Virus record (IMG/VR): IMGVR_UViG_3300031965_000089
Span: 1-37,009 of that record
DNA: 37,009 nucleotides
Reading direction: 5' to 3' (one strand)
DNA from: a virus
Taxonomy: Duplodnaviria > Caudoviricetes
Below the pieces are notes generated by a model, which did no database searches, was not told the origin of the DNA, and saw only the letters and a program-made list of their open reading frames with translations. Positions within the stretch are counted from its first letter, which is position 1. Each line of letters begins with the position of its first letter. Positions 6,037 to 27,747 of this stretch are shown piece by piece. A program made the position numbers and the translations under genes.

Positions 6037-6304
6037 CAGCGGCTCGCCTCGGCCGAGCCGGCGGGGCGGCCGCCGGCGACGCCCTCACAACCGGCGCCGG
6101 CGCCCGCCCATGCGCACGCCGGCCGCCCGCCCCTTCCCCACCAGCCGCTCGCCCGCCGCGCACCACGGGCCGCGCCCGCCGGGCCGCGGGGCCATTCCGG
6201 GCGGGAGCCTTCCCGCCAACCGCCCGCGGCCTTTCCCGCGCCAGGCCGGAAAAGCTTTTTCCCAGCGCGACTTATAAGCCATTGATCGGCCGACATTTTC
6301 ACCC

Positions 6305-6334
6305 TTGCGCGCGGGAAATTTCCCGTGCTATCAT
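6305..6334 (+). promoter_or_regulatory. Predicted sigma70 promoter of the ribozyme operon, with an operator between -35 and -10
   Basis: TTGCGC (6305) N18 TATCAT (6329) with an extended -10 TG. The palindrome CGGGAAATTTCCCG lies at 6312-6325. Confidence 0.7.
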
Positions 6335-6404
6335 CCCCTTTGGCGCTGGGAAATTCCAGCGCCCCACCGCGCGGCGAGGCACGACCGCTCGGGGCAACAA
6401 GCCG

Positions 6405-6423
6405 GCTCTTTGACATCGTGAAG
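6405..6423 (+). promoter_or_regulatory. boxA-like antitermination site 1
   Basis: GCTCTTTGACATCGTGAAG resembles rrn/nut boxA (GCTCTTTAACA). 16 of 18 nt are repeated at 6620-6637. Confidence 0.55.
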
Positions 6424-6619
6424 CGCGCGGGGCCAGGCCTCGCCCTCATCCGCCGGCCGGCGCCTCGCCGGCTAGGCGGGCGGCGGCGAGTGCCGGCACG
6501 AAACCCGCACGCGCGCCCAGGCGGGCGCCCCTGGCGCCCGGCCGGCCAACATCCGCTCAAGAACGACCTGGCCGCCGCCACCGCCCCCGCCCGGAACGGC
6601 GATCAACAAAACGCCGCCC

Positions 6620-6637
6620 CTCTTTCCCATCGTGAAG
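6620..6637 (+). promoter_or_regulatory. boxA-like site 2 (direct repeat of site 1)
   Basis: CTCTTTCCCATCGTGAAG versus CTCTTTGACATCGTGAAG. Confidence 0.4.
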
Positions 6638-6720
6638 AGCAACTCCTGTGCAGTGCAGTTTGTGCGCTGCCGGACCGGCCTGCCCCTTCTTGTCTCCGAC
6701 AAGGCGGGCGGGCCGGCACG

Positions 6721-6788
6721 GTCGCCTGAGGAGGCCAGGGTGACGCCTGGCCGAAACCGGCGCTTCGGCGTCGGTCGCGGCAAACGTC
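6721..6788 (+). ncRNA. Type I hammerhead ribozyme 1 (GUC, predicted cut after 6776)
   Basis: GTCGC-CTGAGGA-GGCCAGG gtgacg CCTGGCC-GAAA-CCGGCGC ttcg GCGTCGG-TC-GCGGC. Loop II GACG pairs with 3' CGTC. Confidence 0.9.
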
Positions 6789-6818
6789 GGCCGCAGACTG
6801 CACATGAAGGAGAGACCG

Positions 6819-7019
6819 ATGAACAACACGACCATTCGCGTCGAGAAGGGCGAGCTCGTGATCCGCTGCAAGCTGAACGGCGCCAAGCCCGACAGCTTCC
6901 CGCTGAGCTCGACGGGCAAGAGCCGGCTGGTCGCTTCGACCACCGGCGCCGTGCCGATCGAGTTCCCGAGCCTGCCTGGCCTGAAGGTCGCGCTCAACGT
7001 CACGATCCCGGCGCGGTGA
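6819..7019 (+). CDS. Small hypothetical phage protein (SSTGKSRLVASTTG motif)
   Basis: AAGGAGAG RBS right after ribozyme 1; 66 aa with coding-like composition. Confidence 0.85.
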   Translation: MNNTTIRVEKGELVIRCKLNGAKPDSFPLSSTGKSRLVASTTGAVPIEFPSLPGLKVALNVTIPAR

Positions 7020-7027
7020 GGGCCAAG

Positions 7028-7249
7028 ATGGTCGAGCGATACAAGGGCGATCCCTATTGGATGATGACCAAGTATCCCGGCGCCTGCTCGAGCTGTGGCG
7101 AGAAGATCTCGCGCGGCAGCCGGGCCTTCTACTTTCCCAAAGGTCGGACGCTTCTGGGCGAGGCCTGCGGCTGCGGCGAGGTCGCGGCCCAGCGCTTCGC
7201 CGCGGAAGCGGCCGACGAAGCCGCCTACAACCAAGGCTACGGCGTCTAG
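7028..7249 (+). CDS. Small Cys-containing, probably Zn-binding hypothetical protein
   Basis: GAGGG RBS; MVERYKGDPYWMMTKYPGACSSCGEKI...ACGCG. The stop codon lies directly before ribozyme 2. Confidence 0.8.
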   Translation: MVERYKGDPYWMMTKYPGACSSCGEKISRGSRAFYFPKGRTLLGEACGCGEVAAQRFAAEAADEAAYNQGYGV

Positions 7250-7251
7250 CT

Positions 7252-7327
7252 CCCGCCTGACGAGGCCGGTTGACCACCGGCCGAAACCGCGCCGCCGGCT
7301 AGAGCCGGCGGCCGGTCGCGGGAAGTC
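7252..7327 (+). ncRNA. Type I hammerhead ribozyme 2 (GUC, cut after 7317)
   Basis: CCCGC-CTGACGA-GGCCGGT tgacc ACCGGCC-GAAA-CCG...CGG-TC-GCGGG aaGTC. Confidence 0.92.
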
Positions 7328-7357
7328 CCCCGCATACTGCACAGAAGGAGAGACCAA

Positions 7358-8437
7358 ATGAGCGAACCCGAAGCCATCGGGACTCCGGAGTCCGTCATCG
7401 TCCCCGCCGGTTATCTGCTGGCGGCCCAGATGCTGACGAACAAGAAAGAGGCCGGTTATCGGCGCTGCGTCTACCTGCACGCCGACCCGGACCCGCACCG
7501 GATGCGGATCGCCGCCACGGATGGCTCGCGCCTCTTCGTCGGCCGCTATGCGGTCGCCGGCGAGCGGCCATCCTGGGCACAGGCCGATCACGGCCTGTTG
7601 CTCGACGGCGAGCTCCTCAAATCCCGTGTCTCGCTGCTCGCCCGCGAGGGCGATCAGCATTTGGTCGTGAGCTTCGCCGCGGGCCTCGCCCGGGCGACGC
7701 TCGCCGACCGGAACGGGACGGCGACATTCAGCTTCAAGGCCGAGGAAGGGGTCTTCCCCGACTACGACGCGCTGCTGGATGTCGACAGCTTCGCCGCAAG
7801 CGAGCCCTTGTCCGGCCTGACGATCAACGGCGCTTTCCTCAAGGAAATCGCCGCCATCGCCCAGGTCCTCGAAGTCTCGGCGATCGACAAGCGGCCGCCG
7901 GCGATCCGCCAATACACGGGCGGGTCGAAGCACGCTCCGGTCCTGTTCGATTTTCCGAACTGGCCCGGCGTCGTGCTGATGCAGCTGCCGCAGCGCTCCG
8001 AGACCATTTCCTCCGAGACCGTGCGCCTGCTCGCTCCGGCGATGCAGCGCACGGTGGCCGCGCTCAAGGCGCATCAGACGCGCAACGAGGAATGGGCCAG
8101 GAAGGCCAAGGGCGAGGAACGCAAGGCCTACCAGGCCAAGGCCACCGAGTTCGCCAGCCGCATCGAGGAGCTGGCGAAGAGCCTGGCGGTCGCGATCGAG
8201 CACAAGCCGGCCGAGCCGCCGGCCGAGCCGAGCATGACCGAGGCCGCGCCCGAGGCCATCGCCGAGCCGACGCCGGCGACGCGCCTGGGCGACGCGGTGA
8301 CGGACAGGCAGCCGAGGGCCAACCGGCGTCTCAAGCGCCGCAAGGGCAACGGCAAGGCCAAAGCGAATGGCCGCGGCTCTAGGACCAAGCGCCGCGAGCG
8401 CCCGGCGCCGGCGGAAGTCGCCGCCGCCGCCGAGTAA
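7358..8437 (+). CDS. Truncated DNA polymerase III beta-clamp-like protein with a charged, low-complexity tail
   Basis: RIAATDGSRL, GVFPDYDALL, INGAFLKEI and VVLMQL parallel the DnaN motifs VATDGHRL, GKFPDY, FNxxYL and VVMPM. Confidence 0.65.
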   Translation: MSEPEAIGTPESVIVPAGYLLAAQMLTNKKEAGYRRCVYLHADPDPHRMRIAATDGSRLFVGRYAVAGERPSWAQADHGLLLDGELLKSRVSLLAREGDQHLVVSFAAGLARATLADRNGTATFSFKAEEGVFPDYDALLDVDSFAASEPLSGLTINGAFLKEIAAIAQVLEVSAIDKRPPAIRQYTGGSKHAPVLFDFPNWPGVVLMQLPQRSETISSETVRLLAPAMQRTVAALKAHQTRNEEWARKAKGEERKAYQAKATEFASRIEELAKSLAVAIEHKPAEPPAEPSMTEAAPEAIAEPTPATRLGDAVTDRQPRANRRLKRRKGNGKAKANGRGSRTKRRERPAPAEVAAAAE

Positions 8438-8512
8438 CCCGCCTGACGAGGCCGGACGACCACCGGCCGAAAAGAAGGGCGCCGCGAGGGCGCCCTTCTT
8501 CGCGGGAAGTCG
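8438..8512 (+). ncRNA. Type I hammerhead ribozyme 3 (UUC, cut after 8501)
   Basis: CCCGC-CTGACGA-GGCCGG acgacca CCGGCC-GAAA-AGAAGGGCGCC gcgag GGCGCCCTTCT-TC-GCGGG aaGTCG. Confidence 0.92.
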
Positions 8513-8542
8513 CCCGCAAACTGCACAACCAGGGAGACGAGG

Positions 8543-8737
8543 ATGACCACCAAGATTATGAGCCGGGCCGATCTCGAGCTGATCGGCGCGGCCCTCAAGA
8601 CTCTGGCCGACAACGGCGTCGTGCGCGGCGATCCCGACGCGCCGGGGCGCGCCGCACGCCTCAAGCTCGAATTCGATCTCGCGCTCAAGGCCTCGGCCCG
8701 CGCGCCGAGCCAGGCCTTCCGCATCGTCAAGGTGTGA
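8543..8737 (+). CDS. Hypothetical protein
   Basis: GGGAGACGAGG RBS after ribozyme 3; 64 aa. Confidence 0.75.
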   Translation: MTTKIMSRADLELIGAALKTLADNGVVRGDPDAPGRAARLKLEFDLALKASARAPSQAFRIVKV

Positions 8738-8740
8738 GGC

Positions 8741-8986
8741 ATGGCCTACTTCATCGCCCTGCCCTGCGCCGGCTGCGGCGTCATCTTCACGGCCAACCCG
8801 CACCTGGTGCCGGTCGCGGTGGTCAATGGCCACCGCGAGGGCATCTGCCAGAGCTGCGTCGCGCGGGTGAACCCGCTCCGCAAGGAGAAGGGTTTGCCCG
8901 AGATCGTCGTCGCCCCCGGCGCCTATGAAGGCGTGGCCGAGCCTACGGACATTGACTGCAACGAACCGCCTGACGAGGCCGGGTGA
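8741..8986 (+). CDS. Small Zn-finger-like protein (CxxC...CxxC)
   Basis: CAGCG and CQSC motifs; GAGG RBS. The 3' end runs into ribozyme 4. Confidence 0.8.
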   Translation: MAYFIALPCAGCGVIFTANPHLVPVAVVNGHREGICQSCVARVNPLRKEKGLPEIVVAPGAYEGVAEPTDIDCNEPPDEAG

Positions 8987-9046
8987 TCCGCCGGCCGAAA
9001 CGGGACGGGCCGCCCCACCAGGGCGGCCCGCCGTCGCGGAATGATC
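8966..9046 (+). ncRNA. Type I hammerhead ribozyme 4 (GUC, cut after 9035)
   Basis: CCGC-CTGACGA-GGCCGG gtgatccg CCGGCC-GAAA-CGG...CCG-TC-GCGG aatGATC. Confidence 0.9.
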
Positions 9047-9068
9047 CGCAAACTGCACAGAGGAGAGC

Positions 9069-9500
9069 ATGATGCACACCGAGGGTGAAGTCAACCTCGC
9101 CGAAGACCAGGCCTTCTGGGGCCCGATCATCTCCAGCTACAGCCGGGCGCAGGCGCTCGAGGACGGCGTGCTGGTCGCTGTGCCGCAGACGATGGCCGAG
9201 GAAGCCGGATTCAGGCTGCCGGTCACCCTGACCGCCAACGCCTGGGCGGCCTGCGTGGCGTTGCCGCCGGAAGGCGATCGCCACGGCCAGGACGAGGACG
9301 GGCGTCTGTGGGACGTGCTCTGGCTCGCCGGCTTCACGGCACGCCAGCGCCGGCACCGCGACCAGAGCCGCGCCAATTTCAGCGTCTCGGTCTACGACGT
9401 CGAACGCGAGCAGGCGATCGTCACCGAACTGGTCGTCGTCGCCGGTCCCGGCGACGAGGGCGAGCCGGTCATCACCATCATGCGTCCGAACGAAGATTGA
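9069..9500 (+). CDS. DUF6573-like mobile-element protein
   Basis: SYSRAQALEDGVLV, QDEDGRLWDVLW and GPGDEGEPVITIMRPNED are recognisable family motifs; GAGGAGAG RBS. Confidence 0.75.
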   Translation: MMHTEGEVNLAEDQAFWGPIISSYSRAQALEDGVLVAVPQTMAEEAGFRLPVTLTANAWAACVALPPEGDRHGQDEDGRLWDVLWLAGFTARQRRHRDQSRANFSVSVYDVEREQAIVTELVVVAGPGDEGEPVITIMRPNED

Positions 9501-9501
9501 T

Positions 9502-9568
9502 CCCGCCTGACGAGGCCAGGTGACCCCTGGCCGAAACCGGGGCACACTCGCCCCGGTAGCGGGAAGTC
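9502..9568 (+). ncRNA. Type I hammerhead ribozyme 5 (GUA, cut after 9558)
   Basis: CCCGC-CTGACGA-GGCCAGG tgacc CCTGGCC-GAAA-CCGGGGC acactc GCCCCGG-TA-GCGGG aaGTC. Confidence 0.92.
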
Positions 9569-9631
9569 CCGCAACTGCACACCGCGCTGCACGGATTGCA
9601 GCTCATCAAATGCGAAGTCGCAGGAGAGAAC

Positions 9632-9937
9632 ATGGCACGCTACCACATGGACGATGGGACCGTCGTCGACACCAAGAACGCTACCGAAAGCTGGGAGGAG
9701 GAAACCCGCTGGGATGGGAACAACAACGTCAGCGTCGCGACGGGAACCCAATGGGACCATGAGAAGCTGCATCGAAGCCGGAAGGGCCGCTACTGGATCG
9801 AGCAGTGGTCGCAGTGGCAGGGCCGGCTGCCATCAGCGCGCTGGGTAAGCCATCAGATAGCCGCTGCCTGGCTGTTGGCGAACGAGCATGAGATTCCGGC
9901 CGATCTCGTAGACGCGGCTGCCGAGGTCGCCGAATGA
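9632..9937 (+). CDS. Hypothetical protein (Trp-rich, acidic)
   Basis: AGGAGAG RBS; MARYHMDDG...HEKLHRSRKGRYW...WSQWQG. Confidence 0.85.
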   Translation: MARYHMDDGTVVDTKNATESWEEETRWDGNNNVSVATGTQWDHEKLHRSRKGRYWIEQWSQWQGRLPSARWVSHQIAAAWLLANEHEIPADLVDAAAEVAE

Positions 9938-9942
9938 ACAAA

Positions 9943-10021
9943 TCCGCCTGACGAGGCCAGGTGACGCCTGGCCGAAACGAAGGGGCGCCCCATTCGGGCG
10001 CCCTTTTCGTCGCGGGAAGTC
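9943..10021 (+). ncRNA. Type I hammerhead ribozyme 6 (GUC, cut after 10011)
   Basis: TCCGC-CTGACGA-GGCCAGG tgacg CCTGGCC-GAAA-CGAAGGGGCGCCC cattc GGGCGCCCTTTTCG-TC-GCGGG aaGTC. Confidence 0.92.
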
Positions 10022-10047
10022 CCGCAGACTGCACAAGGGGGCCAAGC

Positions 10048-10962
10048 ATGACAGTGTTGAAGACCCATATCAGTTGGACGGACTCGACGTGGAATCCGAC
10101 CGTCGGCTGCACGAAGGTCTCGGCCGGCTGCGACAATTGCTACGCCGAGGCCATCGTCCGCCGGCAGGGTCTCGATTTCGCGACGGTCCGCACCTTTCCC
10201 GCCCGCCTCGCCACCGGCCTGGGCTTCGGCCCGGTCGCCGGCGAGGATGGGCGGCCGCGACCTCGCCTCGTCTTCGTCAACTCGATGAGCGACTTGTTTC
10301 ACGAGCAGATCGGCGAAGGCTTCCGCGGCGAGATTTTCGACACCATCGACCACAACAGCCGGACCATCTTCCAGGTCCTGACCAAGCGGCCGATGACCAT
10401 GGCGCGGGTGATCGAGCAGAGATACGCCGCGGCCGGAGTGCCGCGTCATCTTTGGCTCGGCGTCTCGGCCGAGGACAACCGGGTCAAGGGCCGCCTCGAC
10501 CAGCTCCGGCGCTTGAAGGAGCGGGTCGGGAATTTCACGGCCTTCGTCTCGGTCGAGCCGCTCATCGGCCCGGTCGATCGCCACGACTACACCGGCCTCG
10601 ACTGGGTGCTGATCGGTGGCGAGTCGATCCAGATGGGGCGCTGGCGCAAGATGGACATCGACTGGGCCCGACAGGCCCGCGACCAGGCGCGGGCCGCCGG
10701 CGCCGCCATCTGGTTCAAGCAGTTCGGCATGTGGCAGAACAACCCGCTCTACCGCCAGGCGCCGGCCGGTCGCCATTGGGAGAAGGTTCGCTGGTGCATC
10801 GCGAATGGCGAATGCCAGGCCCGGCTCGTGACCGATTGCACGACCGGCAAGGTCAGGATCGAAGGAGAGAAGGGCGGGGCGACGCTCGACGACGAGGTCC
10901 TGCACGAGCTCCCACCCGCCTATCATGCGCTGCGCCAGGAGTTGCTCCGCACGATGCTTTGA
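10048..10962 (+). CDS. Phage Gp37/Gp68 (DUF5131) three-Cys radical-SAM-like protein
   Basis: ISWTDSTWNPTVGCTKVSAGCDNCYA, FVNSMSDLFH, QVLTKR, SVEPL, WVLIGGES and FKQFG. Confidence 0.93.
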   Translation: MTVLKTHISWTDSTWNPTVGCTKVSAGCDNCYAEAIVRRQGLDFATVRTFPARLATGLGFGPVAGEDGRPRPRLVFVNSMSDLFHEQIGEGFRGEIFDTIDHNSRTIFQVLTKRPMTMARVIEQRYAAAGVPRHLWLGVSAEDNRVKGRLDQLRRLKERVGNFTAFVSVEPLIGPVDRHDYTGLDWVLIGGESIQMGRWRKMDIDWARQARDQARAAGAAIWFKQFGMWQNNPLYRQAPAGRHWEKVRWCIANGECQARLVTDCTTGKVRIEGEKGGATLDDEVLHELPPAYHALRQELLRTML

Positions 10963-10992: not shown

Positions 10993-11643
10993 TCAAGCCC
11001 GCCGGCCTCCCGCCGGCGGGCTCTTCTTTTCACCGACGAAGACCAGGCCGAGATAGCGCACCGCGGCGCCGGTCTTGCCCTTGGCCTCCCAGCGATCCGC
11101 CAGCCGACAGCACATGGCCATGGCCAGGCGCCGCAATGCCCGCCCGATGATTTCGCCATGCAAGGCGGCGCCGCCGGAGGGCGTGCCTTCGAGGCCGGCG
11201 ATCCACAGCAGCGCACGCGGATAGCCGCCCATCTTCAGCTTGAGACCCGAGCCTTCGGTCAGCACCAGGCCGACCCTTTCGCCCGGCGCCACCAGCCGAC
11301 GGCTGGCGACGATCCACGCCTGCTCCCACGGCGAACCATGGGCGTCGAGGTCGAATATCGAATAGGGCTGCAAGTCGATCGCCCGCAGCACGCGGCGATT
11401 GTCAGCGACAAAGGCCAAGCGGTCGTCGCGGCTCCATAGCAGGTCGCAGCCGCAATAGCCCGGCGCCTCGCGCCAGACGCGGCGATACATGACCCCGGCG
11501 CCGGCGAAGGCGTCGAACACCTGGCCCCCGACCGCCTGGAGGACGAGCCGCCGGACCGCGACCTTTGCCTCGTGGTGTTCGGCTGCATTGTGCACCTTGG
11601 CCGTCTTGCGGATGGCGGTGCTAAATCGACTGCGTGGTGCCAA
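10993..11643 (-). CDS. SAM-dependent methyltransferase-fold protein (start uncertain)
   Basis: VFDAFAGAGVM (motif I) and FDLDAHGSPW. Confidence 0.7.
   Translation of the reverse strand: MAPRSRFSTAIRKTAKVHNAAEHHEAKVAVRRLVLQAVGGQVFDAFAGAGVMYRRVWREAPGYCGCDLLWSRDDRLAFVADNRRVLRAIDLQPYSIFDLDAHGSPWEQAWIVASRRLVAPGERVGLVLTEGSGLKLKMGGYPRALLWIAGLEGTPSGGAALHGEIIGRALRRLAMAMCCRLADRWEAKGKTGAAVRYLGLVFVGEKKSPPAGGRRA
10996..11030 (+). terminator. Rho-independent terminator closing the ribozyme operon
   Basis: AGCCCGCCGGC ctccc GCCGGCGGGCT stem followed by CTTCTTTT. Confidence 0.75.
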
Positions 11644-12214
11644 GCTCGACCTCGACCATCGGATAGTCCTTCATGAGCAGCTTGATCTTTTGCAGGACCT
11701 GGGCCTGGTCCTTGAGCGGCCCACGCACCGAGACCCAAAACCGATCTTCGACCGGGGCCGTCTCGATGCGCTCGACCGAAATCTCCGCCGGCTCGAGCTC
11801 CGCCAGATCGAAGCCGGCGAGCCCCGTGTCGAGGCCGAGCGCCTGCAATTCCTCGAGCTCTGCGGTGAGGAGGGCCGGATCCCACTCGCCGAGCTCGCCC
11901 AGCCGATTGTCGGCCAGCACGTAGAGCCGTTTCTGCTCTTCGCTCAAATGGCCGAGCTCTATGGTCGGCACCCTCTCCATGCCGAGCTGGCGCGCCGCCA
12001 GCAATCGGCCATGCCCAGCGATGACGCCGGCGGCGCCGTCGACCAGGACCGGAGCATTGAAGCCGAACTCGCGGATCGAGGCCGCGATCTTCGCGATCTG
12101 CTCCGCCGAATGCTTGCGCGGATTGCGCGCGTTCGGGATCAGCTCGGCGACGGGCCGATAGACGATAGCAAGCTCGGCTGCTGGCCGAGCTCGCTTGGGC
12201 TTGGCTCTGGACAT
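11621..12214 (-). CDS. ParB/Srx N-terminal domain protein
   Basis: LIPNARNPRKHSAEQIAKIAASIREFGF, IAGHGRLLAA and LADNRL; AGAGG RBS. Confidence 0.9.
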   Translation of the reverse strand: MSRAKPKRARPAAELAIVYRPVAELIPNARNPRKHSAEQIAKIAASIREFGFNAPVLVDGAAGVIAGHGRLLAARQLGMERVPTIELGHLSEEQKRLYVLADNRLGELGEWDPALLTAELEELQALGLDTGLAGFDLAELEPAEISVERIETAPVEDRFWVSVRGPLKDQAQVLQKIKLLMKDYPMVEVELGTTQSI

Positions 12215-12780
12215 CCTCTTTCTCCGGCTGCGCCATCGAGCTCGTCGCCCCAGGCCTGCCAGCCTGGCCGTCGCCGGCGCGCGAACAATTCGACATAGGG
12301 GCCATCGAACATGCGCTCGAGCATCACATGCAGCGCTTCCGGCTTTTCGGAGTGGCGGCCAGCGGGCGCCACGATCAGATTGCGCTCCGACCGGCTGCGT
12401 TGGCTGGGCGACCCGATCTTGCCGATGAGGAAGAGCTCGGCGGCACTGCGCAGCACATAGCCGGGGCCGAACTGCCAGCTCCCGCCCCCCTTCGAGCGCT
12501 TGGCCCAGGGACCGCCGGTCACATAACGGAAACCCCAGGTTTCCATCACGGCCAGCGCCTCCTTGAGCATCGGGAAGGTGGCCCACAGCGCGAGCACCGC
12601 CGGCGCCGAGGCCAGGTGACCGACCGGGAGCGCCGCGATCTCGTCCGTCGCCATCGTCCGATAATGCGCCTGCGGCGACTTCGCCTCGCCCTTTTGCGAG
12701 TACAGCTCGAACTGCCAGGGCGGATCGGCCAGGATCACCCGGTAGCCGAAGGGCCGAAGCCCGCCAAACGGCCATTTCAT
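12139..12780 (-). CDS. MT-A70 family adenine methyltransferase
   Basis: ILADPPW, HYRTM, LALWAT, WGFRY, HSEKP, ELFAR and WQAWGDE. Confidence 0.92.
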   Translation of the reverse strand: MKWPFGGLRPFGYRVILADPPWQFELYSQKGEAKSPQAHYRTMATDEIAALPVGHLASAPAVLALWATFPMLKEALAVMETWGFRYVTGGPWAKRSKGGGSWQFGPGYVLRSAAELFLIGKIGSPSQRSRSERNLIVAPAGRHSEKPEALHVMLERMFDGPYVELFARRRRPGWQAWGDELDGAAGERGCPEPSPSELGQQPSLLSSIGPSPS

Positions 12781-12784
12781 CCTC

Positions 12785-12875
12785 TAGACCCCCCCTATCG
12801 AAACCTGCGGGCGCGCTCGCAAAGCTACCGCCGCCGGTCCACGGGCGGGGGCGGAAACTTTTTACTCCCCCCCCT
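12785..12875. other. Probable cos/packaging region
   Basis: Non-coding gap immediately after the HNH gene, bounded by G-runs on the minus strand with a central GACCGGCGGCGG. Based on position in HK97-like phages (inference). Confidence 0.4.
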
Positions 12876-13224
12876 GCCCCTCAGCGCGCGCGGCCGCCGC
12901 GTCGGCGCGAGTCTTGGCGCGGTGATGGGCGCGGCAGAGCGGCTGCAGGTTCGTGGGATCATCGCTGCCGCCCGCTGCCTTGGGCACGATGTGGTCGAGC
13001 TCGGCGGCGAGCCGCGTGATGCCGGCCGCCTCGCACAACCGGCAGAGTGGCAGATGGCCGAGGATCAAAGCCCGGGTTCGTCGCCAGCGACGATCGTAAC
13101 CGCGCGCCGCGGCCGAGCGCTCATGGCGCCAAGGCGCCGGCTTGTGCCGCTCGCAGTAGCCGCCGCCGCGCACGACGGCCGGGCAGCCCGGGCGCGGGCA
13201 AGGTCTGAGTGGAAGGTCAGGCAT
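12862..13224 (-). CDS. HNH endonuclease (packaging-associated, HK97 gp74-like)
   Basis: RGYDRRW, LCRLC, LDHIVP and NLQPLCRAHHRAKT. Confidence 0.93.
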   Translation of the reverse strand: MPDLPLRPCPRPGCPAVVRGGGYCERHKPAPWRHERSAAARGYDRRWRRTRALILGHLPLCRLCEAAGITRLAAELDHIVPKAAGGSDDPTNLQPLCRAHHRAKTRADAAAARAEGQGGE

Positions 13225-13471
13225 GGTCGAAGCGCGCTCCCGGGAAGAGGACCCCCTGTCGCGTCGGCACACGCGTTCGCGCGCACAGCTTCACGGCCGC
13301 ACGCGCGGCTTGCAGGCGGCCATAATGATCGGCGCACCACCAGGTCGAGCGGCTCTGCTTCAAGTCAAGCACCAGCGCACGGGCGGTGCGCAACGGGGGC
13401 GGCGACTCACCGAAGCAACCAAAAGCCCGGCAGCCTGGCCAGACGCAGCGGAAGTCAGCGGCGTTTGACAA
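13217..13471 (-). CDS. Hypothetical Cys/His protein
   Basis: CVWPGC...FGCFG...WWCADH; fills the gap in the operon. A TTG start is assumed. Confidence 0.5.
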   Translation of the reverse strand: MSNAADFRCVWPGCRAFGCFGESPPPLRTARALVLDLKQSRSTWWCADHYGRLQAARAAVKLCARTRVPTRQGVLFPGARFDHA

Positions 13472-13709: not shown

Positions 13710-14311
13710 GCCGCCGCCTCCTTGCGCGCCGCGGCCCGCGCCGCCTCGATCGCAAGATTGGCGTCGACCGCCTCGGGGCCGGCGCCGCCGCACGCCTTCA
13801 TGCGCTGCTTCCAGGCGGCCTCGGCTATCGCCAGCGGCGCATCGGGCAGCACGCCCAAGACGACCCACCAGGGCCAATCATCCGCCCGGTTGGCGACGTC
13901 GCCGGCCCTCGGCGCCGGCAGGGCGATGAAGGCGGCGAGCGTCCGCTTCAATATCTGCCCGGCGCCCCAGCGCTCGATGCCGCGCATCGCCTCGACGGTC
14001 TTGGCCAGCGCCTGCACGTTATGCGCGACATGATTGTAGCGGTCGCAGGCAATGACGCGCTGCTCGCCCTGGGCCCGAAACCACACGGCGGCGCCCGGAT
14101 CGTCCGGATCGCCTTCGGCATAGGGCAGGCCATCGCGCCGCAGCGGAACATTGGTCGACAGGATCGCCTCGCCGCCGCCGAACAGGCGCAGCTCGTAATA
14201 GAGCGCCTGGCAGGCGCGATGCAGCCCCGTCTTGAACTTGGCGGCCTGGCGCGCGCGCGGGTCGCCGCGCGACCAGTCTTCCGGCCACTGCAAGGGATAC
14301 TTGTTCGGCAT
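13706..14311 (-). CDS. Phage protein with a degenerate C-terminal J-domain
   Basis: YPLQWPEDW, LSTNVPLRRDGLP, DPGAAVWF, ACDRY, MRGIERWG and WWVVLGV. The HPD motif is absent. Confidence 0.8.
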   Translation of the reverse strand: MPNKYPLQWPEDWSRGDPRARQAAKFKTGLHRACQALYYELRLFGGGEAILSTNVPLRRDGLPYAEGDPDDPGAAVWFRAQGEQRVIACDRYNHVAHNVQALAKTVEAMRGIERWGAGQILKRTLAAFIALPAPRAGDVANRADDWPWWVVLGVLPDAPLAIAEAAWKQRMKACGGAGPEAVDANLAIEAARAAARKEAAA

Positions 14312-14332: not shown

Positions 14333-14378
14333 CGCCGCGCGCGATCAGCCGCCACTCCAACCCTGATCGCGCGCGGCG
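14333..14378. repeat. 16-bp intergenic hairpin whose 14-nt loop is identical to the loop at 19659-19672
   Basis: CGCCGCGCGCGATCAG ccgccactccaacc CTGATCGCGCGCGGCG. Confidence 0.85.
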
Positions 14379-18712: not shown

Positions 18713-18741
18713 ACCATACGGGAAATTTCCCGCAATTGCAA
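18713..18741 (-). promoter_or_regulatory. Lytic (cro) promoter with overlapping operator
   Basis: TTGCAA N17 TATGGT on the minus strand; operator CGGGAAATTTCCCG at 18719-18732; ATG only 6 nt after the -10. Confidence 0.8.
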
Positions 18742-19574: not shown

Positions 19575-19624
19575 CGGGAAAATTCCCGCGATCCGCTTGA
19601 CGCGGGAAATTTCCCGTCTAGACT
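19575..19624 (+). promoter_or_regulatory. Promoter for the xis/int operon with two operators
   Basis: CGGGAAAATTCCCG (19575) and CGGGAAATTTCCCG (19603); TTGACG (19597) N16 TAGACT (19619). Confidence 0.78.
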
Positions 19625-19631
19625 CGCCGGC

Positions 19632-19723
19632 TATCGTGATCCGGGCGCGCGCCGCCAGCCGCCACTCCAACCCTGGCGGTGCGCGCCGCGAGCGGATCGG
19701 GTTGGCGGGCGGCGATCGGCGAG
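19632..19723 (+). ncRNA. Putative structured leader RNA / small RNA
   Basis: 15-bp stem (19644-58 with 19673-87) with loop CCGCCACTCCAACC; outer GATCCG/CGGATC helix; downstream GGGTTGGCGGGCGG is partly complementary to the loop. Confidence 0.5.
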
Positions 19724-24956: not shown

Positions 24957-25738
24957 GCGCTCTCCCGAATGTCCAAGGTCGCGGCATAGACGAAGGGCGC
25001 GTCGTGCCGGATGCGCGCCGGCGCCGCCAGCCGGCCGAGGATGACCTCGCGTCCGGCCGTCGCCGCATCGGGGAAGAGATAGGCGACGAGCTGGGCCCGT
25101 TGCCCGGCGACGCGCACCAGCTCGCGCGCCTGGTCGCGATCGGCGGCGTTCATCGCCTCGAGCGAGAAGGCGACACGGCGCAGGTCGGAACGCTCGTCGA
25201 CGAACTCCGCCCCCGACCGTGGATTGGCCGTGACGCCCGAGAGATCGTCACGGCCTTCCTCCCACTGGAAGGAGAAGTTGCGGGACGGCTGCCAAAGCGG
25301 CCCGGCCCAGGCGCGCCCGAAGTCGACGAACGACGCGGCGAAGGTCGGGACGAAGCGCCAATAGCGGGCGTTCACCGTCGAAGGCGGCCGGTGCACATGG
25401 TAGCCGTAGCCCGCCTGCGTGCCGCTGGCGATCGCCGTCGAGTCATAGGCGGCGCCGGTTCCCGGCGTGCCGCCGTCGGCGTCGAGCAGGTGGCGGATGG
25501 TCTCCGCGGCGCCGATCAGCGGCGTATCGCGGGGCGAGCGCAGCAGCAGAACGTCGATCGCCACGTTGCCGCCGAAATCCACCTGCGCCCAGTCGCCGGA
25601 CGCCGCCGGCCGCCAGCGCAGACCGATCAGCGGATCCTGCAGATTCTCGACCATGAAGTCGCCGGCCTCGGAGGCGGCGCTGAAGGTCGCGGCCGCGGCG
25701 TCGACGTGGTTGACCCAGGAGAGCAAGACCCGCGTCAA
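24953..25738 (-). CDS. Tail tip / distal tail protein
   Basis: TTGA overlap with the upstream gene; W-rich beta-type sequence; position in the tail module. Confidence 0.65.
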   Translation of the reverse strand: MTRVLLSWVNHVDAAAATFSAASEAGDFMVENLQDPLIGLRWRPAASGDWAQVDFGGNVAIDVLLLRSPRDTPLIGAAETIRHLLDADGGTPGTGAAYDSTAIASGTQAGYGYHVHRPPSTVNARYWRFVPTFAASFVDFGRAWAGPLWQPSRNFSFQWEEGRDDLSGVTANPRSGAEFVDERSDLRRVAFSLEAMNAADRDQARELVRVAGQRAQLVAYLFPDAATAGREVILGRLAAPARIRHDAPFVYAATLDIRESA

Positions 25739-27747
25739 GACGCCGGCCCCCACAGGCGCAGGACGATGCGGTCGCGGTCGGCTTCCTCGCGGATGCCGAT
25801 CACCGCGAAGTTGCGGCCGGCGGCAAGCCCGAAGCGCGGCCAGGTCAGTTTCACCACCATGCCGAGCTCGGCGAGGAAGCCGATGCGCTTGACCGTCGCC
25901 CGCAGGATGACGCGCTCCGGGCCGTAGAGATCGATCATCGCCTGGGCCAGCGCCAGCGCATCCTCCGCTTCCTCGAGCTGGGTCAGGAGCTCGCCGTCCT
26001 CGGCGTTGAGGTGGCGCACGCGGACCAGGCCGTCGGCCACCGCCTGCTGGCGCCAGGGCAACGCGAGATACTGGCGGCGCTCGGCATCGACGATCAACGC
26101 CAGATCGGTGCCGGGCTGCAGCGTGTAGATCGGCTGGTAGGAGACCACCTGGCGCCAGCGCGGCGGCGGGTCCGGTTCGGCCGCCACGTCCACGACGTTC
26201 CACAGATCGAGCTCGAGTGCGGGCGTCGCATCCTCGGGCGCCTGCAGCCGGCCGGCGACGAACTTGCCGTCGCGTCGCACGCCCCAGAAGCCCCCGGCGG
26301 AAGCCACCAGCCGGTCGATCACCTGCGCCGTCGTCGGCCGCTCGCCCTCCGAAATGTAGAGGCCCATGGGCCCGGACAGAGAGGCCAGCGCACTCCAGGA
26401 CGGGTCATGGATTTCCGTCTCGGGAATGCCGGCATAGGTCAGCAGCCGGATCGCCAGCACGTCGAGCGCCGTCGAGTAGCCGCCCGAGGCGTCGCCCTCG
26501 ACATCCGCCGTGATCCGTCCGGCCGGCGACGAGCCGAGCCGCACCAAGCCGTAGGCGAGCGAGGTGGCGAAATTCCCGTCCGCGACCTCGGCCGCGATCA
26601 GCGACGGATAATCGGGAGTGTCGGCGCCGGCCGTCAGCGCCGCGCCCCGGTCATAGACGGCGACCACCGCCTGCATCGGCCCGTCATGCACCTGGTAGAC
26701 CAGCTTGACCGGGTCGATCAGCAGGGCCAGAACCTCGCGCGCGAATCCCAGCGTCTTCGGCCGCGGCTTGTCCTTGAGCTCGGCCGTCCCGTTGACGCCG
26801 CCGGTCCCGGTATAGACGCCGCCCTGCACCGGCAGCTCGAGGCCGTAGGATTTGTCGCGCAGGCCGAGCCGCACCACCGTATCGCCCGGCTCCCATTCGG
26901 TGCCGACGACGTTGGCCACGGCGACGAACTCGCTGTAGGCGCCCATGTACGGGCCGACCAGGACGCGCACGTCGCGGCCGTCGATCGCCTGCGCCGCCAC
27001 CAGCGCGTCGAGCGCCGCGTCGCCGGCGAGCAGCTCGATCAGGCCGAACTGCCGCTGCACGCGGCGCGGCTCCTCCGGGTAGAGCGGCAGCAGGCGCTCG
27101 AAGACCAATGGCGAAGGCGAGCGGCCGGGATAGAAGACGTTGGGCTTGAGCGAGTCATCGGGCGCGCCGGCCCAGTCGCGATCCGCATAGAGCAGGGCCG
27201 GGCCCGGCTGGTCGCCGATGTTGCCCCGCTCGTTGGTCGCGAGCGGGATTTCCGCCAGGCCGGCGATGCCCTGGCCCTGGATGGCGCCGGCCGACAGGAA
27301 GGCGGCGATCTCGATCAGGTATTGGATGGCGTCGCGGCCGAGCGCCAGGCCGGTCAAGGGCGAGGTCACCGCCACCTGATCGAGCATCACCAGGATGCCG
27401 GACTGCGTGATGCGCGCGCCCGGGGACGGCGCCAGCGCCACCAGGATGCCGGCCTGCGTGATGCGCGCGCCCGCCGCCGTGCCACCGACCAGGGCCAGCA
27501 CCCCGCCCTGCGTCAGTTGCGCCGCCTCGGCCAAGGGCGACTGATCTTCGAGCACGAGGATGCCGGCCTGCGTCAGCTGGGCGCCGACCGCGCGGCCGCC
27601 CTCCAGCATCAGGACCCCGGCCTGGGTGACTCGCGCCGCCGGCGCCCCGCCGTCGAGCGTCAGGACCCCGGCCTGGGTGACGCGCGCCGCCGGCGTCCCG
27701 CCGTCGAGCGTCAGGACTCCGGCCTGGGTGACGCGCGCGTCGGTCAT
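25735..27747 (-). CDS. Minor tail / hub protein with N-terminal repeats
   Basis: YTGTGGVNG...KPRPKTLG...YQVHDG...VYDRG; N-terminal ARVTQAGVL repeats. Confidence 0.75.
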   Translation of the reverse strand: MTDARVTQAGVLTLDGGTPAARVTQAGVLTLDGGAPAARVTQAGVLMLEGGRAVGAQLTQAGILVLEDQSPLAEAAQLTQGGVLALVGGTAAGARITQAGILVALAPSPGARITQSGILVMLDQVAVTSPLTGLALGRDAIQYLIEIAAFLSAGAIQGQGIAGLAEIPLATNERGNIGDQPGPALLYADRDWAGAPDDSLKPNVFYPGRSPSPLVFERLLPLYPEEPRRVQRQFGLIELLAGDAALDALVAAQAIDGRDVRVLVGPYMGAYSEFVAVANVVGTEWEPGDTVVRLGLRDKSYGLELPVQGGVYTGTGGVNGTAELKDKPRPKTLGFAREVLALLIDPVKLVYQVHDGPMQAVVAVYDRGAALTAGADTPDYPSLIAAEVADGNFATSLAYGLVRLGSSPAGRITADVEGDASGGYSTALDVLAIRLLTYAGIPETEIHDPSWSALASLSGPMGLYISEGERPTTAQVIDRLVASAGGFWGVRRDGKFVAGRLQAPEDATPALELDLWNVVDVAAEPDPPPRWRQVVSYQPIYTLQPGTDLALIVDAERRQYLALPWRQQAVADGLVRVRHLNAEDGELLTQLEEAEDALALAQAMIDLYGPERVILRATVKRIGFLAELGMVVKLTWPRFGLAAGRNFAVIGIREEADRDRIVLRLWGPAS
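27385..27740 (-). repeat. About 7 tandem peptide repeats, A(R/Q)(V/I/L)TQ(A/S/G)G(V/I)L, with a unit of roughly 51 bp
   Basis: Visible in the protein, and in the DNA as ccggcctg(g/c)gt(g/c)a repeats. Confidence 0.85.

Follow-up and report, generated by a model that had tools for sequence, protein, structure and literature searches.

Why would a phage operon carry six hammerhead ribozymes, and what would become of the RNA pieces that they release? Here, we address this question for the IMG/VR virus record IMGVR_UViG_3300031965_000089, one 37-kb virus record that was analyzed over its whole length (37,009 nucleotides [nt]; hereafter, the window). Hammerheads self-cleave and leave 5'-OH and 2',3'-cyclic phosphate ends. 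The initial annotation of the window had proposed that the six ribozymes cut one transcript into gene cassettes and work like a natural ribozyme-insulator array. Our analysis supports the first half of this proposal: the ribozymes very probably process one transcript into mRNAs of one to two genes, with cleavage by the motif taken from the tested family. The second half did not stand in its passive form; rather, each ribozyme comes with a pseudoknot, a rival hairpin, and a shared ACUGCACA box, and the leader is antisense to the boxes, and these four features argue against a passive insulator array. We lean toward a reading in which ribozyme cutting and the freed leader would jointly lower translation by way of the box and the nearby ribosome-binding site. 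For the more specific proposal that the freed leader is a ribozyme-released antisense RNA that represses the cassette mRNAs, we judge the sequence evidence to be evenly balanced.

Six type I hammerheads lie between the cassettes of one probable operon

When the whole 37,009 nt were scanned structurally for type I hammerheads on either strand, exactly six copies emerged, each on the + strand; 100 third-order Markov control sequences gave none, and no further type I or type II hammerhead was found in the window. The six complete copies lie where the initial annotation had placed them:

6721..6812, + strand: hammerhead 1, core start 6726, triplet GUC, cut after 6776; rival hairpin 6777-6794, box 6797-6804, Shine-Dalgarno (SD) sequence 6807-6812
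7251..7343, + strand: hammerhead 2, core start 7257, triplet GUC, cut after 7317; rival hairpin, box 7336-7343
8438..8527, + strand: hammerhead 3, core start 8443, triplet UUC (with an A-U pair), cut after 8501; rival hairpin, box 8520-8527
8966..9059, + strand: hammerhead 4, core start 8970, triplet GUC, cut after 9035; pseudoknot GAUC/GAUC, rival hairpin, box 9052-9059
9501..9581, + strand: hammerhead 5, core start 9507, triplet GUA, cut after 9558; rival hairpin, box 9574-9581, SD sequence about 45 nt further
9943..10035, + strand: hammerhead 6, core start 9948, triplet GUC, cut after 10011; rival hairpin, box 10028-10035

The core elements CUGANGA, GAAA, and NUH follow each other in this order in 6 of 6 copies, and stems II and III are closed by loops while stem I is open, which is the type I layout. 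Several details that had been read from the sequence initially hold up: all triplets stay within the NUH rule, stem III is paired in every copy although its sequences are unrelated, and the recomputed cut sites agree with the predicted fragments of 541, 1184, 534, 523, 453, and about 1020 nt. Stem II spans 6 to 8 base pairs (bp). Stem I is short, as had been described; however, it spans 4 to 6 bp if G-U pairs are counted and not 4 to 5 bp. The proximity of the ribozymes to the upstream genes was likewise borne out for four of the five internal copies, in that the end of the stop codon precedes the inner 4 bp of stem I by 3, 1, 2, and 6 nt in copies 2, 3, 5, and 6, respectively; the open reading frame (ORF) upstream of copy 4 enters the ribozyme and stops within loop II.

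A search with the Rfam hammerhead models, which had been suggested as a check, matched none of the six copies at the gathering score or at E values up to 10. Because the type I copies in the homologous operons G001, G004, and G008 (see below) were likewise missed and one type II copy was matched, we attribute the missing matches to a gap in the models. When each copy was subjected to plain folding along with its 3' flank, 1 of 6 minimum-energy structures contained stem I, and the rival hairpin captured the 3' strand of stem I in four of the six.

A pseudoknot, a rival hairpin, and a shared box accompany each ribozyme

Loop II can pair with the 3 to 4 nt just past stem I in a pseudoknot of at least 3 bp in all six copies, and the two partners covary by matched changes (GACG/CGUC, CGAC/GUCG, and GAUC/GAUC). 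In a set of partly nonindependent hammerhead sequences from outside the window, 3 bp were reached by 78 of 156 loop/tail pairs (permuted maximum, 64). The pseudoknot was present in 44 of 67 copies with a short stem I (permuted mean, 27.5; maximum, 41), whereas copies with a long stem I gave no signal (21 of 55; permuted maximum, 26).

The 3' strand of stem I has an alternative partner, namely a repeat of the 5' strand located downstream. This rival hairpin, which forms the predicted 5' end of each 3' cleavage product, is present in all six copies in the window, in 13 of 13 scanned copies in G004, and in six of seven in G002; among the outside hammerheads, it was found behind 43 of 159 (permuted maximum, 29; letter-shuffled maximum, 36). 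Calculated without pseudoknot or tertiary terms, the rival-hairpin folds are between 0.2 kcal/mol less and 5.6 kcal/mol more stable than the stem I folds. Because the rival hairpin may thus compete with stem I, an assay on refolded RNA could give a false-negative result.

The rival hairpin also bears on the idea that the fragment ends re-form a hammerhead and are ligated into circular mRNAs, or that the repeats mainly serve recombination of the cassettes at the DNA level. Stem I is near-identical in all copies, most loop/tail pairs are cross-compatible, and shared genes are ordered differently in homologous arrays, all of which would suit such joining or shuffling. However, the rival hairpin hides the ligation strand in 6 of 6 3' products and, in the parts of their paper covered here, Perreault et al. 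sought circles and spliced products and found none (PMC3088659). Moreover, stem III diverges while the catalytic bases stay invariant, a pattern that fits selection for cleavage. We regard circularization and shuffling as very improbable.

Behind the rival hairpin and before the gene start, all six copies carry the invariant ACUGCACA box, and ACTGCAC occurs only once elsewhere on the + strand of the window. Cassette 5 (9574-9625) has a longer 5' region, in which a second CTGCAC lies in a hairpin ahead of the SD sequence. Related motifs occur in other phages. Unrelated AT-rich phages (L229, L266, and L301) carry CTGCTAGGAG directly after their hammerheads, and for this reason a CTGC box before an SD sequence may be a wider phage translation signal. 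Across two further phages (L808 and L811, i.e., G003 and G005), there are many short GTGCAG-n-CTGCAC palindromes with variable spacers, one variant of which holds an SD sequence right before a start codon; these palindromes are possibly a protein-bound hairpin.

The leader contains an element antisense to the boxes

The transcript that precedes the first ribozyme has the following features:

6340..6776, + strand: leader of about 435 nt without a credible ORF; 5' end placed from the likely promoter; would be freed by cut 1
6404..6423, + strand: boxA-like site 1, contains an exact 12-mer shared with rRNA leaders
6620..6637, + strand: boxA-like site 2, two mismatches to site 1; directly precedes the antisense element
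6642..6664, + strand: antisense element of 23 nt in two overlapping registers, register 1 at 6642-6654 and register 2 at 6653-6664

The leader has a folding z score of −4.15 and matches no Rfam family; nor was an Rfam antisense family matched anywhere else in the window. Register 1 of the antisense element is complementary to the SD sequence and the box, and register 2 to the box and the rival arm. The reverse complement of the box occurs only once in the 37 kb, at 6647-6654 within this element. We ranked 24,475 sequence windows from both strands, with the boxes' own reverse strand masked, by their mean duplex energy with the six box regions. The one at 6643 ranked first (mean, −21.8; next, −19.8) and had the best worst-case energy among those shown, with every box paired at −19 kcal/mol or better.

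The two boxA-like sites compare with 0.01 expected. The 12-mer of site 1 is located approximately 190 to 230 nt before the 16S rRNA in two of its five matches, in alphaproteobacterial genomes (L997 and L1001), and it is also present in the leaders of G001 and G005. Because it precedes 16S rRNA in such genomes, the 12-mer suggests a boxA signal and an alphaproteobacterial host. In G005, the leader of a further operon with hammerheads contains the boxA-like 17-mer of site 1 (L811 2125-2150).

The element could also act only on its nearest neighbor. The minimum-energy fold of 6611-6830 pairs it with box 1 and SD 1, and a partner in cis has a concentration advantage; in such a cis clamp across hammerhead 1, cut 1 would gate g1, and the other boxes would be bystanders. 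The element, however, pairs equally well with boxes 3, 4, and 6, and the homologous operons described below also speak against a clamp: the first box of G008 is degenerate, G004 has a whole gene between the element and the first box, and the strongest element of G001 lies downstream of every target. We consider the cis clamp unlikely.

Register 2 raises a different alternative because it covers the rival arm. The leader, possibly held on the RNA polymerase by boxA, would bind the rival arm and box of nascent copies, free stem I, and switch on cleavage. Consistently, with register 2 bound, stem I is present in 5 of 6 minimum-energy folds compared with one of six for the copies alone; in both the window and G001, the element comes directly after the second boxA-like site; and rRNA antitermination complexes are described, in the parts of the source covered here, as fixing the 5' RNA at the exit channel and aiding long-range annealing (PMC8632103). 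The pairing probability of stem I, however, increases in only four of the six copies, decreases in one, and stays at 0 in copy 1. In addition, most boxes of G001 have no type I hammerhead in front of them, and the leaders of G004 and G008 have no good boxA match (best, 7 to 8 of 12). Such an activator or folding guide is, in our assessment, rather improbable. Also improbable is an all-RNA circuit in which the leader, freed by the first ribozyme and tethered through boxA, would serve as a traveling guide: by pairing with the boxes as they emerge, it would switch on the ribozymes, holding back the rival arm, and would keep the ribosome site covered up to the moment at which the gene is cut free. 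If this were true, one RNA would time both the processing and the translation of the whole early operon.

Antisense stretches recur in homologous operons

Three operons (G001, G004, and G008) share g1, g3, or g8 with the window at 27 to 64% protein identity. Their boxes read CTGCAA and not CTGCAC. All three contain antisense stretches, which are strong in two and weak in one. Five further hammerhead-bearing groups (G003, G005, G006, G007, and G009), which have no common box with a located leader, were outside this test.

In G008, the antisense site ranks 1 of ~300 array-strand sites; it is located in the leader, with the first ribozyme following after approximately 70 nt, and the degenerate box of the first gene is among its worst partners. 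In the G001 leader, an antisense stretch (rank 4 of ~490) comes after two boxA-like sites, the same order as in the window. The best site in G001 (rank 1 of ~490) is found right behind a type II hammerhead that is confirmed by Rfam and sits at the end of the early operon (L807 3400-3544, − strand), and it is followed by a terminator-like hairpin. It pairs with the seven boxes of this operon, all of which lie upstream, at −17.4 to −28.6 kcal/mol. Based on this arrangement, the type II hammerhead would free an RNA of ~100 nt that comprises a 17-nt antisense to the shared box and the terminator-like hairpin. Because the element is placed downstream of all seven boxes, it is not a clamp on the first gene, and action in trans is best argued from this placement. 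In L807, moreover, a stretch 3' of the core would be able to fold back onto CUGAUGA once the RNA is cleaved.

Each of the three leaders (G004, G008, and G001) has better pairing with its own boxes than with those of the window. The G004 and G008 leaders share one 13-mer and no other word of 9 nt or longer, and a three-way alignment of the leaders revealed no shared overall sequence. The eight records of the G008 family are near-identical and, therefore, provide no covariation information. A combined rank test gave a p value of ~0.005, on which we do not rely because it uses the favorable 17-kb rank of G004 and an assumed 500-nt leader.

The homologous arrays differ in size. In G004 (L813 3724-14600 and L1003 1152-1215), approximately 19 hammerheads of types I and II are mixed in one operon, i.e., 16 type I candidates (17 matches, one of which lacks stem II) and three of type II. 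In several of them, one extra base follows CUGANGA, and the UGA of the hammerhead core serves as the stop codon of several genes upstream. G002, which is near-identical to G008, has seven hammerheads.

Another alternative is that the ribozymes cut and nothing more is regulated, the box being a copied ribosome-loading spacer or a protein site and the leader match an inverted leftover. The cassettes look duplicated, which is enough by itself to conserve the box; boxes also precede genes that have no hammerhead; the antisense match of G004 is weak; and the element of G004 and G008 overlaps a boxA-like stretch. Against processing alone, antisense stretches recur in diverged leaders together with a changed box variant, the leaders of G004 and G008 have only the 13-mer in common, and the antisense of G001 lies between a hammerhead and a terminator-like hairpin. 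A gene start on the reverse strand was considered as the source of the element and was rejected because no consistent start lies behind it across the four phages. We consider processing without regulation improbable.

Proposed function of the array and the leader

Altogether, we favor the reading in which cutting and the freed leader jointly lower translation; specifically, we favor translational repression because boxes also precede ribozyme-free genes and the element of G001 covers both the box and the SD sequence. In the scheme that we propose, induction would clear the operator so that one RNA of ~4.7 kb is made, the boxA-like sites probably protecting its untranslated leader from termination. 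Each ribozyme would then fold with the help of its 3- to 4-bp loop II pseudoknot and cut, as would be expected from what is known of the family, to give the ~435-nt leader and six mRNAs. In the 3' product, the strand of stem I would refold into the 5' hairpin, the sequence for which is present in 6 of 6 copies; this hairpin would release the product, block religation, and provide the mRNA with a stem-loop at its 5'-OH end. Finally, the leader would accumulate, and 6642-6664, the complementarity of which to the boxes is observed directly, would bind the boxes in trans and cap cassette expression. We are highly confident in the cutting and the refolding of the products.

Several observations weigh against this scheme. 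Concerning the cutting, some copies may cut slowly because the rival fold is more stable than stem I by up to the 5.6 kcal/mol given above. Moreover, the rival hairpin behind stems other than CCGC (25 of 134) exceeds the number with permuted tails but not that with letter-shuffled tails (mean, 18.8; maximum, 31). Concerning the leader, most bases of the antisense element are taken up by pairing when the freed RNA is folded in silico, and before cut 1 the element folds onto the box and SD sequence of gene 1 itself, as a clamp acting only in cis would explain. Boxes 5 and 6 have no adjacent GGAG. The window leader prefers its own boxes; however, it also pairs with those of G004 (−16.8 to −18.0) and, therefore, its specificity is modest. 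In the homologous operons, the site of G002 ranks 2 on its strand in 25.7 kb, and that of G004 is weak: it ranks 6 of ~566 within 17 kb, and within 46 kb its rank is 27 on the array strand and 50 if both strands are considered. Finally, searching for the 13-mer common to the leaders of G004 and G008 returned 120 loci, of which 65 extend at least 1,500 nt downstream, but no additional independent array; arrays were found at only four loci, all of which belong to the two known families.

Control region and genes of the operon

The window has the context of a temperate phage, with genes for an integrase, a helix-turn-helix (HTH) repressor, terminase, portal, a prohead protease, and HK97-type head proteins, and the array is divergent from the small terminase gene. 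Besides the ribozymes and the leader, the operon comprises the following features:

6305..6334, + strand: likely promoter, TTGCGC, 18 nt, TATCAT; read from the sequence, with the layout of the TTGACG...TAGACT site at ~19597
6313..6324, no strand assigned: palindromic operator within the promoter spacer; recurs near the repressor gene
6819..7019, + strand: g1, 66 amino acids (aa), no family; no Pfam or PHROG match
7028..7249, + strand: g2, 73 aa, function unassigned; weak match to phrog_5664
7358..8437, + strand: g3, 359 aa; N-terminal part resembles the DNA polymerase III beta clamp
8543-8737, + strand: g4, 64 aa, from the ORF list; no family in Pfam or PHROG
8741-8986, + strand: g5, 81 aa, no family; stop inside hammerhead 4
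9069..9500, + strand: g6, 143 aa, DUF6573 (PF20213, E = 1.5e-26)
9632..9937, + strand: g7, 101 aa, ORF of no family; no Pfam or PHROG match
10048..10962, + strand: g8, 304 aa, DUF5131 (PF07505, E = 5e-64)
10996..11032, + strand: terminator-like hairpin with an 11-bp stem and a U tract, at the end of the operon

The promoter of the array falls below the threshold of a consensus scanner, which found none. The operator has exact copies at 18720 and 19604 and a copy with one mismatch at 19576 (four copies at up to two mismatches compared with 0.77 expected). The copy at 18720 lies in the cro/cI gap, i.e., between a leftward small cro-like gene and the HTH repressor gene. The palindrome is likely bound by the phage repressor and, because it recurs in this gap and at 19576 and 19604, we infer that the array is a repressor-controlled early operon.

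Homologs of g1 are encoded in the arrays of G004 (64% over 36 aa) and G008 (45% over 64 aa), and a protein search returned one outside homolog. The N-terminal part of g3 may be beta-clamp-like; this lead comes from feature and predicted-fold matches, and the weak PHROG match of g3 bears a label other than clamp. Its homologs in G001, G004, and G008 are 27 to 34% identical, and those of g8 in G004, G008, and G002 are 37 to 39% identical. Among GenBank phages, no relative of the array DNA, g1, or g3 was found.

Three other regions of the window deserve mention. At 11621-13272 (− strand), genes for an HNH nuclease, an MT-A70 methyltransferase, and a ParB-domain protein are located upstream of the array in the opposite orientation; if late transcription ran from these genes through to the small terminase gene, its RNA would be complementary to the entire array. 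A 20-nt repeat lies in the loops of two long hairpins. That at 19646-19688 is in the leader behind the operator-bearing promoter at ~19597 (+ strand), and that at 14336-14378 has its complement on the − strand just upstream of the SD sequence of an ORF that begins at 14311; these RNAs could pair with each other loop to loop as antisense partners or provide an antitermination signal. Lastly, six coding repeats with a period of 51 nt are found at 27383-27743, within a probable tail gene (25735-27747, − strand).

Breadth of the hammerhead class

Two core patterns of the type I hammerhead are present in an estimated 410 and 1,900 viral stretches. Using these patterns with stem I unconstrained, we examined 257 loci, 155 of which yielded 161 distinct type I hammerheads. 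An SD sequence and start codon follow within 90 nt in 119 of 159 hammerheads from outside the window, a count that has no control. Four loose pattern scans returned 485 loci, mostly by chance; among these, no true hammerheads were found other than in two phage families, G001 and the record of the window itself. In 401 alphaproteobacterial genomes, none of the 47 matches listed, from 46 genomes, was hammerhead-like by eye. The type I class is large and is missed by Rfam.

Relation to known systems

The initial annotation had pointed to no characterized operon with this full architecture; the novelty that this implies is not supported. Because Perreault et al. in 2011 already described clustered hammerheads in prophages together with their processing, the architecture is known: in the parts of that paper covered here, prophages are described as often having single genes or short blocks flanked by several hammerheads, processing into short mRNAs is proposed, tandem arrays of three bacteria cleave in vitro with one active in E. 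coli, and a pseudoknot is described (PMC3088659). By every feature testable here, the array in the window is such a cluster. Like those clusters, it has several hammerheads that flank single genes or short blocks, on one strand, in a temperate phage; unlike the tested arrays, which had two or three copies, it has six (PMC3088659). The text parts of the same paper make no mention of the rival 3' hairpin, the box before the SD sequence, the boxA sites, or the antisense leader, all of which may be present in the sequences that it covers (PMC3088659). In the literature searched, to which most subscription papers did not belong, we found no paper on an antisense RNA or leader for such hammerhead arrays.

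The early mRNAs of phage T7 provide a parallel for the processing in that one early transcript is cut cotranscriptionally into mono- and dicistronic mRNAs. However, T7 uses a host enzyme, RNase III, whereas the cuts predicted here would be made by the RNA itself and leave 5'-OH and cyclic phosphate ends. If the leader acts as predicted, it has a parallel in the C4 RNA of P1/P7, a phage RNA that is processed from a longer transcript and pairs over phage ribosome-binding sites (PMC5320573). As described in the parts of the source covered here, C4 is a three-stem RNA of ~77 nt that is matured by RNase P and has two seed loops (PMC5320573). In a C4-type seed comparison, the window leader has two overlapping registers that cover box and SD sequence and are mostly paired in its predicted fold. 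Unlike C4, this leader would be freed by a ribozyme, and its six predicted targets lie on the transcript from which it comes. The Rfam C4 antisense RNA model gave no match in 6200-10200 at E values up to 10, and we rejected the leader as a C4 family member on this basis. As for rRNA operons, boxA-like site 1 contains the exact 12-mer found ahead of 16S rRNA and site 2 has two changes; here, these candidate Nus factor sites are in a phage mRNA leader, and there are two of them.

A 2019 review states, in the parts covered here, that the purpose of bacterial and phage hammerheads is undefined beyond a suggested role in processing (PMC6765202). The present locus offers a testable purpose, i.e., uniform 5' ends on many mRNAs and an RNA that would regulate them jointly, and the four diverged operons are natural compensatory variants. 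Relative to the known clusters, the array itself is known and common; what would set the locus apart is the predicted antisense circuit, with its counterparts in diverged homologs.

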